In this document: positions 1 to 5,671 of the stretch, one piece after another | How positions within the stretch are numbered: the first letter of the stretch is position 1 | Layout: the number at the start of each line of letters is the position of its first letter | Made by a program: the position numbers and the translations under genes | The notes under the pieces: generated by a model | What the model saw: the letters and a program-made list of their open reading frames with translations, nothing else | What the model was told of the DNA's origin: nothing | Database searches by the model: none | Source of the DNA: a virus | Taxonomy: Duplodnaviria; Heunggongvirae; Uroviricota; Caudoviricetes | Length of the DNA stretch: 5,671 nt | Reading direction: 5' to 3' (one strand) | IMG/VR virus record: IMGVR_UViG_2703718781_000017

Positions 1-407
1 TCTGGCAGCCTGAGTTCACAGATAAAACACTCTCCAGGAAACCCGGTGCGGTTCCTCCGGTAGGCGGTGGCCGTGCTGTCACACGCCCCTTTCAGGCGTT
101 CACGTTCAAAATTCAGCACCACGGCCAGATTGTCATATTCCTGTACCAGCTCCCGGCGTGCCACGCGCTCAATGTGGCGCTGTTTCAGCTCGTCGCTCAG
201 GACACCACCGGCTGCACGAAAGGCCGTGCGCCAGTCGTCAGCATCGTTTCCGTCGGCCTGCGTCAGCGCATTTTTTTCCTGCTCTGCCCGTTCAATGGCC
301 GTGACGGTCTCATCCATCAGGCGGGCGTTCTCAAGATGAGCGACTCTGGCCTTTTCCAGTTGTGCCAGTGCGGGTTGCAGATATTCAGGGATGGTGTTGT
401 CAGACAT
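1..407 (-). CDS. Hypothetical protein, N-terminal 135 codons only (gene continues past the left window edge); possibly the first gene of a divergent late-type operon
   Basis: Reverse-strand frame is open with no stop from the window edge to the ATG at complement 407..405; product begins MSDNTIPEYLQPALAQLEKARVAHLENARLMDETVTAIERAEQEKNALTQ. GAGGAG Shine-Dalgarno (complement of 415..420) lies 7 nt upstream of the ATG. Absent from the ORF track because it is truncated. Charged, helix-prone composition. Family not recognised. Confidence 0.6.
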   Translation of the reverse strand, partial: MSDNTIPEYLQPALAQLEKARVAHLENARLMDETVTAIERAEQEKNALTQADGNDADDWRTAFRAAGGVLSDELKQRHIERVARRELVQEYDNLAVVLNFERERLKGACDSTATAYRRNRTGFPGECFICELRLP

Positions 408-479
408 TTTCCGGCTCCTCGTCACTTCAGGTTAAGAAAATTGTGACGTACACCGGACAACAACACGACGCATTGCAGA

Positions 480-497
480 TGTGCCAGCCCTGACACA
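480..497 (-). promoter_or_regulatory. TGT-N12-ACA dyad, candidate activator site of a P2/P4 late-type promoter driving the reverse-strand gene
   Basis: TGT at 480..482 and ACA at 495..497 with a 12-nt spacer. The dyad centre (about 488) is ~55 bp upstream of a predicted reverse-strand start near 433, with a weak -10-like CACAAT (complement of 440..445) and the ATG at 407. This geometry matches Ogr/Delta-activated late promoters (established knowledge). A second TGT-N12-ACA lies at 442..459. The motif is short and about one chance occurrence is expected in a window this size. Confidence 0.3.
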
Positions 498-576
498 GGA
501 GACTCATCCTCAGACCGGCAAGCCAGGAAAAGGTCGCAGGAAAAACCGGCTTACTGTTTGTTTTTTTATATTTTAC

Positions 577-680
577 TGTTCACCTCTGTTCACCTTAATA
601 AAAAAGATAAGTAATACAGTAAGTTAAATGGTGAACAATCGCAGTAATGACTGTTCACCGTCTGTTCACCACTGTTCACC
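577..680. repeat. ori-like iteron cluster: six copies of the octamer TGTTCACC (five direct, one inverted)
   Basis: Exact TGTTCACC at 577..584, 587..594, 652..659, 663..670 and 673..680; inverted copy GGTGAACA at 630..637. The cluster sits in an AT-rich intergenic region with a T-run at 553..568. The same octamer recurs downstream of the primase gene (5391..5671). In P4 the alpha protein binds this type I iteron at ori and crr (established knowledge). Confidence 0.75.
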
Positions 681-682
681 CG

Positions 683-771
683 TTGATGGGCTTTTTGTGC
701 TGTTTATTACTTTTTATTTTTATTAATTCACTGAAATAAATAAGAAAAAACAATTTGTATTTCACTATAAT
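683..771 (+). promoter_or_regulatory. AT-rich candidate promoter region for the AlpA gene
   Basis: Strongly AT-rich stretch immediately right of the iterons, with a perfect TATAAT at 766..771. No convincing -35 hexamer at 17 bp spacing, so exact promoter placement is uncertain. Confidence 0.3.
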
Positions 772-958
772 TTTTTCCAGCTCCTTCCAGAGCGTTTTAA
801 AGCTATCTGGCGCTGATGTACAAAAAACGCACAGCCATTGTAAGGCTGCCGGAACAAATCCCCCCTGTTGCGTCTGCCAAAAATATTCACAAAATAAAGC
901 GCTACCCGAAGCCGGACGGACTTATCCGGTGCTGTATGGACATTAACGAGGTAGCCCG

Positions 959-1225
959 ATGCAAGCTGTTTTTTCTTCCCCGTCTCCCGCCCCTGTGACG
1001 CCACTGATGCCGCTGCCGGACATCACGCAGGAGCGTTTTTTACGTCTGCCGGAAGTGATGCACCTGTGCGGCCTGTCACGCTCGACCATCTACGAACTCA
1101 TCCGTAAGGGGGAATTTCCGCCGCAGGTGAGTCTTGGCGGTAAAAATGTGGCCTGGCTGCACTCTGAAGTCACCGCATGGATGGCCGGCCGCATTGCCGG
1201 ACGCAAACGGGGGTATGACGCATGA
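959..1225 (+). CDS. alpA: AlpA-family phage/island transcriptional regulator (helix-turn-helix, excisionase-like fold)
   Basis: Translation contains the hallmark AlpA motif [52 protein letters not shown] at 947..950 sits 8 nt upstream of the ATG at 959. An alternative start at the in-frame ATG 1007 would give the more typical ~72 aa length but lacks a Shine-Dalgarno. Stop TGA at 1223..1225. Confidence 0.85.
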
Positions 1226-1260
1226 TGATGCCCGCTCTGCAAAAACTCCCTTTTTCTGGC

Positions 1261-1290
1261 TTGCCTTTTTCCGGCATTTGCGGATATAGT
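1261..1290 (+). promoter_or_regulatory. Candidate sigma70 promoter in the leader downstream of alpA
   Basis: TTGCCT at 1261..1266, an 18-bp spacer, then TATAGT at 1285..1290. Predicted start near 1297. Sequence-only prediction. Confidence 0.3.
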
Positions 1291-1353
1291 CTTTCCGTTG
1301 CCGCAAAATCGGCAGCCGGGCGTGAGAACCCGTGTAGCTCGAAGGCGACATAT

Positions 1354-1375
1354 GACGCGCCATGCGTCTTTTTTT
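1354..1375 (+). terminator. Short hairpin plus T7 tract: candidate weak intrinsic terminator or attenuator
   Basis: GACGC (1354..1358) pairs with GCGTC (1364..1368) around a 5-nt loop, followed by seven T (1369..1375). The stem is only 5 bp. An outer pairing GCGACA (1345..1350) with TGTCGC (1377..1382) encloses the hairpin and T tract, suggesting alternative folds. It could terminate alpA transcription or a ~80 nt transcript from the 1261..1290 promoter. Confidence 0.35.
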
Positions 1376-1507
1376 GTGTCGCAATCAACGCCACAGAGCG
1401 CCAGATTATGGTGTGGCGTGTGGTTTGCCGTGCAGGTATGATCCTGTTCGCAATCGCATGTTATGCCACTGAGTCAATGGTAGCTCAGGCGGGGCAGCCT
1501 CCGGGCT

Positions 1508-1535
1508 GGCCGGTATTCTTCGAGGCCGGTATTCT
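1508..1535 (+). repeat. Perfect 12-bp tandem direct repeat GGCCGGTATTCT (period 16 bp)
   Basis: GGCCGGTATTCT at 1508..1519 and again at 1524..1535. It lies in the leader upstream of the first cassette gene and is followed by a 9-bp-stem hairpin (GCTATCGCC 1549..1557 pairing with GGCGATAGC 1576..1584) just before the ribosome-binding site of the 1615 gene. Confidence 0.8.
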
Positions 1536-1614
1536 CACCCCCGTCTGGGCTATCGCCATCGAGCGTGAGAACTCCGGCGATAGCAGTTATTTGCTACTCG
1601 AAGGAGGCTGCCTT

Positions 1615-1812
1615 ATGGCTACAACCCTTACCCCCTCACACCCTGAATTTGTCTTTGTGTTTGCGGCTGTCCGTCGCGCAGACCGTCATCCCCGTATCTG
1701 TATGCTTCGCACCGTCGCCGGTGATGAACGCAGTGCCCGCCGTTCCCTTGTCCGTGACTATGTGCTCTCCCTTGCTGCCCGTCTGCCGGTGGTGGAGGTG
1801 TCCCGTGCGTAA
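1615..1812 (+). CDS. Small hypothetical protein (65 aa), first gene of the alpA-to-primase cassette
   Basis: Strong AAGGAGG Shine-Dalgarno at 1601..1607 sits 7 nt before the ATG at 1615; stop TAA at 1810..1812. Product is [65 protein letters not shown]. Small proteins in this position of P4-like islands are often annotated as Icd-like, but I cannot confirm homology from sequence alone. The ORF-track version 1222..1812 would cross the promoter and terminator-like leader features and is unlikely to be translated in full. Confidence 0.6.
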
Positions 1813-2092
1813 TAAAAAAGCCCCTCAGACCGTCTCAGCGCGTCATGACGCCCGTGAACACCTCAGCATTGAGGCTTACCATAAGCTCAACCGCGCCAGC
1901 GCCGTATCCCAGTTTGTTGGGGGTGATTTGATTCACCGTGAACTCTCCGGCCTGCATCAGCTCTACATTCCGCATATTTTCAGCTACCTGAATGAAGATA
2001 TTGATTTTGTGCTGAATGAACTGAAAGCCAAAGGCCTGTGCCGCGATTTTCTCGCCCAGCAGAAAGACCGGGGAGACAGGACGCATGTTTGA
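1805..2092 (+). CDS. Hypothetical protein (~95 aa), probable GTG start, translationally coupled to the upstream gene
   Basis: GGAGG at 1794..1798 sits 6 nt upstream of GTG at 1805, which overlaps the TAA stop of the previous gene. The frame stays open to TGA at 2090..2092 and contains no in-frame ATG after 1805. The only ATG-initiated version (1565) would overlap the 1615 gene out of frame for 240 nt. Product is [95 protein letters not shown]. Confidence 0.5.
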
Positions 2093-2540
2093 TTTTCCCC
2101 AGCCCGGTGAGATTTACCGTTCTGCCGGTTTTCCCGATGTGGCCGTGGTCGGCATTCTGGAAGACGGTATTCCGTGGGAAATGCCGTACCGCTGCCCGGA
2201 AATTGTCTGGAACCCGTACCGCCGTAAATTCAGTATCCTTGTGCGTATCCTCGCTGACGGACGCACCACAGACATCCCGCTGGGGCGTTTTCTGCGGGAA
2301 TTTACCTGTGACCGTCCTGACCTGTTTAAACGCAGCCCCGTAAACCGGCATGCGGTACTGAAAGAAATGGCCGGAGACCCGGAATTACAGAAATGGCGGG
2401 AAAAATATCTGGATATTTACCCGCAGGACACTGTTCCGGTCAGCCGGGCAGCACCGGTGGCGCGGGAATGGCGGGAAATTCCCCGCACGGAGCCTGACCC
2501 GGAAACCACCCCGGATAACAGTTACCGCAATTATCTGTAA
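2085..2540 (+). CDS. Hypothetical protein (151 aa)
   Basis: ATG at 2085 overlaps the stop of the previous gene by 8 nt (ATGTTTGA), with GGAGA at 2071..2075 upstream. Clean 151-codon frame ending TAA at 2538..2540. Product begins [63 protein letters not shown]. No domain recognised by eye. Confidence 0.65.
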   Translation: MFDFPQPGEIYRSAGFPDVAVVGILEDGIPWEMPYRCPEIVWNPYRRKFSILVRILADGRTTDIPLGRFLREFTCDRPDLFKRSPVNRHAVLKEMAGDPELQKWREKYLDIYPQDTVPVSRAAPVAREWREIPRTEPDPETTPDNSYRNYL

Positions 2541-2568
2541 TTAAAAAACGACCCCCGAAAAATTAAAT

Positions 2569-2608
2569 GTGCGTATTCGCGCAGGGATACGCACGTCTTC
2601 AGGAGACG
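2569..2608 (+). promoter_or_regulatory. Tandem hairpins or inverted repeats in the intergenic gap between the 151-aa and 63-aa genes
   Basis: GTGCGTAT (2569..2576) pairs with ATACGCAC (2587..2594) around a 10-nt loop; immediately after, CGTCT (2594..2598) pairs with AGACG (2604..2608) around a 5-nt loop. No U tract follows, so this is not a canonical terminator. Candidate operator, RNA processing site or internal regulatory element. Confidence 0.35.
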
Positions 2609-2675
2609 CAGATATACCTTATCAGTTAATGCAACCGGCACGGAATGCAGTCATCTGTCACAGGGAGAAAAGCAA

Positions 2676-2867
2676 ATGAAAACACCCTTACCGCCCGTCT
2701 TACGCGCTGCCCTTTACCGTCGCGCTGTCGCCTGTGCCTGGCTGACCGTGTGCGAACGTCAGCACCGCTACCCGCATCTCACCCTTGAGTCACTGGAGGC
2801 GGCCATCGCCGCTGAGCTGGAAGGCTTTTATCTGCGCCAGCACGGTGAGGAAAAGGGCGTCAGATAG
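2676..2867 (+). CDS. Small hypothetical protein (63 aa)
   Basis: GGGAG at 2663..2667 sits 8 nt upstream of the ATG at 2676; stop TAG at 2865..2867. Product is [63 protein letters not shown]. Family not recognised. Confidence 0.55.
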
Positions 2868-2890
2868 CCTGTGCCCTGCTGGAAGATTTA

Positions 2891-2995
2891 ATGGAATCCG
2901 GCCCCCTGAAGGCCGCGCCGTCGCTGTCCTTTCTCGGGCTGGTTGTGATGGATGAACTCTGTGCCCGTCACATAAAAGCGCCGGTACTGCACTGA
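2891..2995 (+). CDS. Possible 34-codon upstream ORF whose stop overlaps the primase Shine-Dalgarno (speculative)
   Basis: ATG at 2891 to TGA at 2993..2995 ([34 protein letters not shown]). The stop abuts the AAGGAG at 2995..3000 that serves the primase ATG at 3010. No good ribosome-binding site of its own. Could be a leader peptide, a coupling ORF or non-coding. Confidence 0.2.
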
Positions 2996-3009
2996 AGGAG
3001 AACAACACC

Positions 3010-5343
3010 ATGAAAATGAACGTAACCGCCACCGTCAGCCATGCGCTCGGCCACTGGCCGCGTATTCTCCCGGCGCTGGGGATTCAGGTGCTGAAAAACC
3101 GTCATCAGCCCTGTCCGGTCTGTGGCGGGAGTGACCGCTTCCGTTTTGATGACAGGGAGGGGCGCGGCACCTGGTACTGCAATCAGTGTGGTGCCGGTGA
3201 CGGCCTGAAACTGGTTGAAAAGGTGTTTGGTGTTTCCCCGTCCGACGCGGCCGCAAAGGTGGCTGCCGTGACCGGCAGCCTGCCCACGGCTGACCCGGCA
3301 GTGACGGCCGCCGCCGGCGCTGAAACAGACGCTGCCCGGAAGAACGCCGCCGCACTGGCACAAACCCTGATGGCAAAAACCCGTCCCGGAACCGGTAACG
3401 CCTACCTGACCCGCAAGGGCTTTCCCGGCCGGGAATGCCGGATGCTGACCGGCACACACAGAGCCGGTGGCGTGAGCTGGCGCGCCGGTGACCTTGTGGT
3501 GCCACTGTATGACGACAGCGGCGAACTGGTTAACCTTCAGTTAATCAGTGCTGACGGCCGTAAGCGCACCCTGAAAGGCGGACAGGTCAGGGGCACCTGT
3601 CACACCCTTGAAGGACAGAATCAGGCCGGAAAACGTCTGTGGATAGCGGAGGGATACGCGACCGCACTTACCGTACATCACCTGACCGGTGAAACGGTGA
3701 TGGTGGCGCTTTCTTCCGTGAACCTCCTTTCTCTGGCCAGCCTTGCCCGGCAGAAGCATCCGGCCTGTCAGATTGTCCTTGCCGCAGACCGTGACCTCAG
3801 CGGTGACGGCCAGAAAAAAGCCGCCGCAGCCGCAGATGCGTGTGAGGGCGTTGTTGCCCTGCCGCCGGTCTTCGGTGACTGGAATGATGCCTTCACGCAG
3901 TACGGCGGGGAGGCCACCCGTAAGGCCATTTATGATGCCATCCGGCCACCGGCTGAAAGCCCGTTCGATACCATGAGCGAAGCGGAGTTTTCCGCCATGA
4001 GTACCAGCGAAAAGGCCATGCGTATCTATGAGCATTACGGCGAGGCGCTCGCGGTCGATGCCAACGGCCAGCTTCTGTCCCGCTATGAAAATGGTGTCTG
4101 GAAGGTGCTGCCGCCACAGGACTTTGCCCGGGATGTGGCCGGGCTGTTTCAGCGTCTGCGCGCGCCGTTCTCCTCCGGGAAGGTGGCCTCCGTGGTGGAC
4201 ACCCTGAAGCTGATTATTCCGCAGCAGGAAGCCCCCTCCCGCCGCCTGATTGGCTTTCGTAACGGCGTGCTCGACACGCAGAACGGCACGTTCCACCCGC
4301 ACAGTCCGTCACACTGGATGCGCACCCTGTGCGATGTGGATTTCACCCCGCCGGTGGACGGTGAAACGCTGGAGACCCACGCCCCCGCGTTCTGGCGCTG
4401 GCTTGACCGTGCCGCCGGTGGCCGTGCGGAAAAACGCGACGTGATTCTGGCCGCACTGTTTATGGTGCTGGCAAACCGCTACGACTGGCAGCTCTTTCTG
4501 GAGGTGACCGGTCCCGGCGGCAGCGGCAAAAGTATCATGGCCGAAATAGCCACCCTGCTGGCCGGGGAGGATAACGCCACGTCGGCCACCATCGAGACGC
4601 TGGAATCCCCGCGTGAACGTGCCGCGTTAACTGGCTTCTCACTGATACGCCTGCCGGACCAGGAAAAATGGAGCGGCGACGGAGCCGGACTCAAGGCCAT
4701 CACCGGCGGCGATGCGGTGTCCGTTGACCCGAAATACCGGGATGCGTACTCCACGCATATCCCGGCGGTGATTCTGGCCGTGAACAATAACCCGATGCGC
4801 TTCACCGACCGCAGCGGCGGCGTGTCACGCCGGCGGGTGATTATTCACTTCCCGGAACAGATAGCCCCGCAGGAGCGCGACCCGCAGCTTAAGGACAAAA
4901 TCACCCGCGAGCTGGCGGTCATCGTGCGTCACCTGATGCAGAAGTTCAGCGACCCGATGCTCGCCCGGTCACTGCTTCAGTCCCAGCAGAACTCAGACGA
5001 GGCACTGAACATCAAACGGGATGCCGACCCGACGTTTGATTTTATCGGCTATCTGGAAACCCTGCCGCAGACCAGCGGCATGTATATGGGGAACGCCAGT
5101 ATCATCCCGCGTAATTACCGTAAATACCTCTATCACGCCTATCTGGCCTACATGGAGGCAAACGGCTACCGGAATGTACTCAGTCTGAAAATGTTCGGGC
5201 TGGGGCTGCCGGTGATGCTGAAGGAATACGGACTGAATTACGAGAAGCGCCATACCAAACAGGGGATACAGACCAACCTGACGCTGAAAGAGGAAAGCTA
5301 CGGCGACTGGCTGCCAAAATGTGACGACCCTGCAACAGCCTGA
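3010..5343 (+). CDS. P4 alpha-type multifunctional replication protein: primase (zinc ribbon plus Toprim), helicase with P-loop NTPase, and C-terminal origin-binding region
   Basis: 777-codon ORF with AAGGAG at 2995..3000, 9 nt before the ATG. Zinc-ribbon signature CPVCGG-x18-CNQCG (aa 35..60, nt about 3112..3189). Toprim motifs WIAEGYATAL (Glu 214, nt about 3649) and AADRDLSGDG (Asp 260 and 262, nt about 3787..3795). Walker A GPGGSGKS at aa 501..508 (nt 4510..4533). The C-terminal ~150 aa are unassigned and by analogy with P4 alpha should bind the TGTTCACC iterons. Stop TGA at 5341..5343. Confidence 0.95.
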   Translation: MKMNVTATVSHALGHWPRILPALGIQVLKNRHQPCPVCGGSDRFRFDDREGRGTWYCNQCGAGDGLKLVEKVFGVSPSDAAAKVAAVTGSLPTADPAVTAAAGAETDAARKNAAALAQTLMAKTRPGTGNAYLTRKGFPGRECRMLTGTHRAGGVSWRAGDLVVPLYDDSGELVNLQLISADGRKRTLKGGQVRGTCHTLEGQNQAGKRLWIAEGYATALTVHHLTGETVMVALSSVNLLSLASLARQKHPACQIVLAADRDLSGDGQKKAAAAADACEGVVALPPVFGDWNDAFTQYGGEATRKAIYDAIRPPAESPFDTMSEAEFSAMSTSEKAMRIYEHYGEALAVDANGQLLSRYENGVWKVLPPQDFARDVAGLFQRLRAPFSSGKVASVVDTLKLIIPQQEAPSRRLIGFRNGVLDTQNGTFHPHSPSHWMRTLCDVDFTPPVDGETLETHAPAFWRWLDRAAGGRAEKRDVILAALFMVLANRYDWQLFLEVTGPGGSGKSIMAEIATLLAGEDNATSATIETLESPRERAALTGFSLIRLPDQEKWSGDGAGLKAITGGDAVSVDPKYRDAYSTHIPAVILAVNNNPMRFTDRSGGVSRRRVIIHFPEQIAPQERDPQLKDKITRELAVIVRHLMQKFSDPMLARSLLQSQQNSDEALNIKRDADPTFDFIGYLETLPQTSGMYMGNASIIPRNYRKYLYHAYLAYMEANGYRNVLSLKMFGLGLPVMLKEYGLNYEKRHTKQGIQTNLTLKEESYGDWLPKCDDPATA

Positions 5344-5350
5344 CCCACCT

Positions 5351-5375
5351 GACCGGCATCTGCCGGTCTTTTTTT
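5351..5375 (+). terminator. Rho-independent terminator of the primase operon
   Basis: GACCGGCA (5351..5358) pairs with TGCCGGTC (5361..5368), a GC-rich hairpin, followed by seven T (5369..5375). It starts 8 nt after the primase stop codon. Confidence 0.8.
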
Positions 5376-5390
5376 ATCCCTGAATTCCCC

Positions 5391-5671
5391 GAAGGTGAAC
5401 AATCCACTGTTCACCCTTCACCGTATATTCACCCGTTATCACACTGAAATTAAAAGAGAAAAACGAAAGGTGAACAGTGTGAACAATCAAATCAAAAAAA
5501 ACTTTTTTCTTCCGGTGTGATTTCAGCACGGGAAATTAATCCCCTGCACAAGTCACACCGGCAGAATGCCGGAGGTGAAGAATCGAATGTTCACCCTTCA
5601 CCCATTATTCACCACCTATCACTATGAAATAAAATGAGAAAACAGAAAGGTGAACAGTGTGAACAGTTCTT
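5391..5671. repeat. crr-like cis replication region: two ~100 bp imperfect direct repeats spaced 180 bp apart, each carrying TGTTCACC and GGTGAACA iterons
   Basis: Unit 1 (5391..5488) and unit 2 (5571..5668) align at roughly 80 percent identity with a 180-bp offset. Exact octamers: GGTGAACA at 5394..5401, 5469..5476 and 5649..5656; TGTTCACC at 5408..5415 and 5588..5595. Degenerate copies include CTTCACC, ATTCACC, GGTGAAGA and GTGTGAACA. A GC hairpin precedes each unit (5351..5368 and 5558..5572). The window ends inside or just after unit 2. Confidence 0.75.

Follow-up and report, generated by a model that had tools for sequence, protein, structure and literature searches.

The octamer cluster upstream of alpha as the probable ori1 of a P4-family satellite prophage

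A dense cluster of short identical repeats in an intergenic region of a viral genome raises the question whether it constitutes an origin of replication and, if so, to which type of replicon it belongs. The locus discussed here lies at 577-680 of a stretch of 5,671 nucleotides (IMG/VR record IMGVR_UViG_2703718781_000017), which was analysed as a whole and is referred to as the window. By direct search the octamer TGTTCACC was found exactly at 577, 587, 652, 663 and 673 on the plus strand and at 630 on the minus strand, i.e., six times in 104 bp, and the initial annotation, which had described five direct copies and one inverted copy, was accurate in every detail. Judged from the sequence comparisons described below, the cluster is very probably the ori (ori1) of a P4-family satellite prophage, forming the upstream half of a bipartite origin with the initiator gene alpha and the downstream region crr as its partners.

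Iteron clusters on both sides of the alpha gene

The window contains eleven exact copies of TGTTCACC, all of them in the two clusters, while 200 dinucleotide-preserving shuffles gave 0.27 ± 0.53 copies and at most three; the count is far beyond chance, as had been claimed. A tolerance of one mismatch brings five more copies in the downstream cluster and, elsewhere in the window, just four scattered singletons. The expectation that the octamers are confined to the two loci was borne out in 45.6 kb of E. coli O145 chromosome, where 11 of 11 exact copies lie in ori and crr and none was found in the about 34 kb of host DNA flanking the near-identical O145 prophage. As an 8-mer is expected by chance about 100-200 times per 5-Mb genome, it is the clustering and not the uniqueness of the octamer that constitutes the meaningful signal.

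Megablast against phage records aligned window 56-5671 in a single piece and in reverse orientation to the complete P4 satellite phage genome (X51522 / NC_001609) with 97.3% identity. The earlier proposal of a P4-type two-site replicon, with ori and crr flanking the primase gene, is therefore more literally true than had been assumed, since the window itself is a P4-family element and its octamers are in register with the annotated P4 repeats. In X51522, a rep_origin ("origin of DNA replication") is annotated along with six features named "ori type 1 repeat", and a constant offset of 1635 separates the latter, in the oriented P4 locus (L001), from the six window octamers. Type 1 iterons 1 and 2 are located at 577..584 and 587..594 (plus strand; L001 2212-2219 and 2222-2229), the inverted iteron 3 at 630..637 (minus strand; L001 2265-2272) and iterons 4, 5 and 6 at 652..659, 663..670 and 673..680 (plus strand; L001 2287-2294, 2298-2305 and 2308-2315). 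The start-to-start spacings are 10, 43, 22, 11 and 10 bp, and the values of 10, 11 and 10 bp place the tandem copies about one helical turn apart. Iterons 2 and 3 are separated by an AT-rich spacer of 35 bp (595..629, 86% A+T), which is identical to P4 in 34 of 35 positions and conserved across the alpha relatives. Together, the six iterons and the spacer form the ori1 core (555..681, plus strand), which lies inside the X51522 rep_origin, is conserved in the MAFFT alignment described below and is one base off P4.

This base, a G to T change at window 629, is the sole difference from P4 over 400-705 in a pairwise alignment. The cluster occupies the place of P4 ori1 between sid and vis (ORF88), and the homologous stretch in P4 is spanned by the rep_origin feature. 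An alignment to the P4 reference, which had been suggested earlier, thus agrees at both sites, with the constant offset and the single substitution at ori and an identical first repeat at crr. The statement that the origin is defined by sequence alone has to be corrected accordingly: it is homologous to an origin that has been annotated in P4, from which its conserved core departs by a single substitution. A consensus terminator scan additionally flagged the minus strand at 659-630, and the stretch 570-690, folded as single-stranded DNA, is slightly more stable than shuffled sequences (z = -2.15). That iterons 3 and 4, being inverted, serve as a hairpin or terminator was rejected, as the arms are the iterons themselves, the loop is variable among relatives and there is no convincing T-run; the hairpin is treated as a by-product of iteron orientation.

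The recurrence of the octamer downstream of the primase gene, about 4.8 kb from the ori cluster, was likewise confirmed, with five exact copies within 5394-5656, the first of which begins 51 bp past the stop codon of the 3010-5343 reading frame. The alpha transcription terminator (5351..5375, plus strand; 'talpha' in X51522, L001 6997-7021; identical to P4) is followed by two direct repeats of 120 bp. The first crr repeat (5389..5508, plus strand; L001 7035-7154) is identical to P4 and contains exact iterons at 5394 (minus), 5408 (plus) and 5469 (minus) and copies with one mismatch at 5426 (plus) and 5478 (minus), the same five sites as in the X51522 annotation. The second crr repeat (plus strand; L001 7215-7334) is covered at 5569..5671, i.e., for 103 bp up to the window end, and would reach window 5688; it contains exact iterons at 5588 (plus) and 5649 (minus) and copies with one mismatch at 5574 (minus), 5606 (plus) and 5658 (minus). 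Aligned up to 5671, it shows two substitutions compared to P4, none of them inside the iterons. Its last 17 bp lie beyond the window end, and the full crr is seen in the near-identical O145 prophage. The two repeats align with each other at 5389-5485 and 5569-5665 (97 nt, 84% identical, 180 bp apart). The ten annotated P4 crr iterons are the ten window sites found at one mismatch or fewer. Both ori and crr have been used as construct parts (PMC9942202; a 2026 bioRxiv preprint).

The gene between the two clusters, alpha (3010..5343, plus strand), encodes a protein of 777 amino acids, of which 771 are identical to P4 alpha, with a zinc-ribbon/Toprim primase, an SF3-type helicase and a C-terminal origin-binding domain (Pfam: Zn_Ribbon_Prim, Toprim_3, D5_N, DUF5906 as SF3-type helicase core, and Pox_D5). 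Residues 671-770 (5020..5319, plus strand) form a winged-helix origin-binding domain that aligns with all 100 residues of the solved structure of its P4 counterpart (PDB 1KA8; E = 1.1e-63), and all six differences from P4 alpha fall outside this domain. Alpha is a primase-helicase essential for P4 replication, and cnr is the controller of plasmid copy number (PMC8628076).

A one-mismatch octamer, TGTTCACG, is also present inside alpha at window 4779-4786. An exact minus-strand TGTTCACC is present at the corresponding place, near nt 1766 of the coding sequence, in many divergent alpha genes (L045, L050-L056, L058, L072, L075, L077, L080, L081 and L083). This could be either a codon-constrained coincidence or an internal alpha-binding site.

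Among E. coli complete genomes, the best matches are chromosomal prophages of O145:H28 strains, with 99.9% identity over window 56-5671, and at least 80% of the window is present in 961 of 5426 genomes; nearly one half of E. coli genomes reportedly contain P4-like prophages (PMC8628076). The element of strain RM9872 (NZ_CP028379) is chromosomally integrated and comprises int, a variable two-gene cargo, psu, delta, sid, the intergenic region, vis, the immunity region, epsilon, orf151, cnr and alpha. The reading frame at 959-1225, named alpA in the initial annotation, carries a Phage_AlpA domain (Pfam) and is vis, its product being identical to P4 ORF88 (Vis) in 87 of 88 residues. The P4 immunity RNA set was recovered with Rfam, i.e., the C4/CI antisense RNA at 1473-1560 (74 bits), its a1b1 target at 1284-1336 and an isrK-like RNA at 1297-1374; a sigma-70-like promoter at 1261-1290 fits the P4 early promoter. 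A reading frame at 1222-1812, called 'Icd-like' in RefSeq, overlaps the immunity RNAs in 1284-1560. Alpha genes with 98-100% identity also occur on contigs labelled as metagenome-assembled genomes of Ferruginibacter, Clostridiales, an unclassified bacterium and Ruminococcus (L004, L005, L006 and L039), which are most likely mis-binned E. coli prophage fragments.

Conservation of the iteron block and the proposed mechanism of initiation

Scanning one genome per species, we found relatives of alpha with 57-100% identity at 80 loci, in Enterobacter, Citrobacter, Klebsiella, Kluyvera, Raoultella, Pantoea, Pectobacterium, Serratia, Rahnella and others. A recurring layout of exact octamers was observed, with (+)-+++ located 1.6-2.6 kb upstream of alpha and -+-...- starting from about 60 bp past its stop codon. 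Over the 80 loci, the octamer has a density of one exact copy per 509 bp within the ori/crr zones vs. one per 12.2 kb elsewhere. Where alpha identity is at least 78% and the upstream region is included, nearly every locus has 5-7 copies in 130 bp at one mismatch or fewer. When 40 distinct upstream clusters (those of the window, of P4 and of 38 loci with alpha identities of 57-85%) were aligned with MAFFT, the six iteron positions (consensus TNTTCACY) and the AT-rich spacer sequence proved to be kept down to 57% alpha identity, and conservation collapsed directly right of iteron 6. The conserved block amounts to about 125 bp (window about 555-681).

This extent is in line with the minimal ori1. 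Deletion mapping has delimited ori1 of P4 to about 123 bp, consisting of the six iterons and the 35-bp AT-rich segment. A crr-like cluster is found 0.7-2 kb past the alpha stop codon in L011 (+735), L031 (+2072), L029 (+1288) and L034 (+684), compared to the usual distance of about 60 bp, which suggests insertions between alpha and crr in these loci.

What is observed directly is that ori, crr and alpha match their annotated P4 counterparts in sequence and that the iteron layout is kept across the relatives. From the near-identity of ori and alpha to P4, we infer that alpha would bind and initiate replication at this site; the melting point, the cooperation of ori with crr and the independence from host factors are likewise carried over from the established P4 work and would apply by analogy. 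P4 replication is theta-type and proceeds bidirectionally from ori, and the type 1 iterons are bound by alpha at ori as well as at crr. For the window element, it is proposed that the C-terminal winged-helix domain of alpha recognises the TGTTCACC iterons, so that alpha would be bound to all six sites of the ori cluster (577-680) and to the ten of the two crr repeats (5389-5671 and beyond). The duplex would then be opened by alpha, most likely at the 35-bp spacer, to which an unwinding role can tentatively be assigned, and alpha would subsequently unwind the DNA with its own helicase and prime with its own primase. Thereby, replication could start without the host initiator, helicase-loading or primase proteins.

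P4 replication is independent of host DnaA, DnaB, DnaC and DnaG. A search for the DnaA box TTWTNCACA with at most one mismatch gave no hit in 540-760, and the window-wide count of 10 is at chance level (7.5 ± 2.5). The absence of DnaA boxes near the iterons fits an origin that is independent of the host initiator, as would be expected for an initiator bringing its own helicase and primase. Cnr would normally restrain replication via alpha; in P4, Cnr inhibits replication by enhancing the binding of alpha to the iterons.

Departures from P4 and alternative readings

Apart from the origin, crr and alpha, the window copy differs from P4 at several positions. An end of an IS629/IS1203-type element (IS3 family; 95-98% match by megablast) occupies window 1-58 and interrupts sid (56-407, minus strand) at about 56, leaving about 117 of 244 codons. 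Downstream, cnr, the copy-number regulator acting on alpha (2676..2867, plus strand), encodes 63 amino acids instead of 106, as a run of five A is shortened to four (about 2851-2854), and its Pfam match to DUF5375 covers only profile positions 1-62 of 106. The run of five A is present in all six close relatives checked, among them P4, the O145 prophage and three almost identical contigs. The deletion is either a genuine frameshift of this strain or a sequencing error in the homopolymer, and unless it is the latter, the regulated plasmid-mode replicon looks defective in the window copy.

The window copy may thus be a decaying prophage though its origin, crr and initiator are intact, and the cluster could be a P4 ori by descent that is now silent, its iterons persisting for lack of time to decay. 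Such a relic concerns the activity of the site and not its identity, and we consider it rather unlikely. The broken sid, the cnr deletion that was not seen in the six close relatives and the chromosomal integration of the element in the closest genomes are what would be expected of it. The intactness of ori, crr and alpha speaks against it: these, for crr in its first repeat, and the immunity RNA set are essentially identical to those of functional P4, sid as a capsid-size gene is dispensable for replication, the cnr change affects a single homopolymer base and could be a sequencing error, and the same ori allele is found with intact neighbours in hundreds of E. coli genomes.

A further departure lies to the right of the core. 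The three 10-bp "ori type 2 repeats" of P4 (L001 2420-2449, corresponding to window 785-814) were not found in the window upon alignment to P4; they are replaced by a patch of about 45 bp (772-816) that is unrelated to P4 sequence and contains the palindrome CCAGAGCGTTTTAAAGCTATCTGG at 787-810. The two alleles occur at similar frequencies in E. coli (window type in 373 genomes, P4 type in 439 genomes) and therefore represent a common natural polymorphism. According to published deletion mapping, the type 2 repeats lie outside the minimal ori1, and they are treated as an accessory, allelic feature that is not defining for ori1. A co-variation of Vis with the patch was ruled out, as Vis is identical to that of P4 in 87 of 88 residues. 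It is conceivable, but improbable, that the segment 772-816 is a swappable regulatory cassette, which would be bound by a host or satellite factor and would tune origin firing or the adjacent late promoter; if so, the two alleles would mark functionally distinct P4 lineages. A modulation of the flanking late promoters by alpha bound to the iterons would be a weaker variant of this idea.

The latter touches on the earlier suggestion that the origin overlaps the divergent promoter region. The start codon of sid is at 407 on the minus strand, and the sid-vis intergenic region comprises roughly 550 bp. TGT-N12-ACA is the activator motif of P2/P4 late promoters, and a motif search located two such sites at 442-459 and 480-497 (minus strand) on the sid side and one at 839-856 (plus strand) on the vis side, the TGT and ACA triplets of the latter being conserved in P4; all three are outside the iteron block. 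Following the literature on P2/P4 late promoters, the former two can tentatively be assigned to Psid, with sites centred near -18 and -55 and a start near 433 (minus strand), and the latter presumably belongs to PLL reading into vis, centred near -55 with a start near 902. The distance from the iteron block to the nearest activator-type sites is about 80 bp on the sid side and about 160 bp on the vis side, and the stretch from iteron 6 to the vis-side site is the least conserved of the region, being allelic even within E. coli. The iterons share the sid-vis intergenic region with the divergent late promoters without overlapping their locatable elements, so the claimed overlap does not hold, and given these gaps the suggested coupling of replication and transcription control is speculation without sequence support here.

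The same distances bear on the reading that the iterons are mainly a transcriptional operator, at which alpha bound to 577-680 would regulate the divergent late promoters of the sid operon leftward and of vis and the left operon rightward. The cluster does lie inside the region that holds both late promoters, and on iteron plasmids the initiator bound to inverted iterons often autoregulates a promoter. This reading is nevertheless very improbable, as the block overlaps no locatable promoter element, the conserved block stops abruptly at iteron 6 and the sequence toward the vis-side promoter is the least conserved; to our knowledge, there is no published evidence for alpha acting on the sid and vis late promoters. 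That the octamers represent an unrelated dispersed repeat family or chance occurrences can be rejected, since none of the 200 shuffles exceeded three copies compared to the eleven found and the layout travels with the alpha gene across Enterobacterales.

Comparison with known replicons

The feature is already known: the prophage is of a P4 type common in E. coli, and its origin corresponds to the one annotated for P4. Work on the P4 origin and its TGTTCACC iterons, on crr and on alpha dates back to the late 1980s and 1990s, and all of them carry GenBank annotations. The discovery value of the locus is therefore little, and it mainly serves as a positive control, in which a true bipartite origin was recovered and correctly named from the DNA letters alone. 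A small comparative addition is that the iterons and the AT-rich spacer are kept as a unit across Enterobacterales, with the P4 type 2 repeats variable even within E. coli.

The closest system is the ori/crr pair of phage P4 (oriI replicon; X51522 / NC_001609 / X05623), which has the same octamer and the same number, orientation and spacing of the six ori iterons. It also shares the 35-bp AT-rich spacer (34/35), the 4.8-kb separation of ori and crr, the two 120-bp crr repeats with five iterons each, starting from 46 bp past the alpha stop codon, and an alpha protein that is 99% identical with an unchanged origin-binding domain. In contrast to P4, the window has T for G at 629, the type 2 repeats, located about 105 bp right of iteron 6 in P4, are replaced and cnr is frameshifted. 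The O145:H28 prophages (e.g., NZ_CP028379, RM9872) have the P4 gene order and, like the window, the ori allele without type 2 repeats, but their sid and cnr are intact, while the window has the IS end in sid and the one-base deletion in cnr.

Iteron-containing theta plasmids such as pSC101, R6K, F, P1 and RK2 resemble the P4-type origin in having tandem initiator-binding repeats about one helical turn apart by an AT-rich segment and in controlling copy number through the interaction of initiator and iterons. They differ in the length of their iterons (about 17-22 bp vs. 8 bp here), and the P4-type initiator possesses its own helicase and primase. Moreover, the P4-type origin has no DnaA boxes and, according to the crr annotation, depends in cis on a second iteron site at a distance of 4.8 kb. 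As in alpha, primase, SF3-type helicase and DNA recognition are combined in one polypeptide in ORF904 of the archaeal plasmid pRN1 and in poxvirus D5, with which alpha shares D5_N/Pox_D5 hits (PMC4234260). pRN1 uses a prim-pol domain and has no iterons, while P4 alpha combines a bacterial Toprim-type primase with an iteron origin (PMC4234260).
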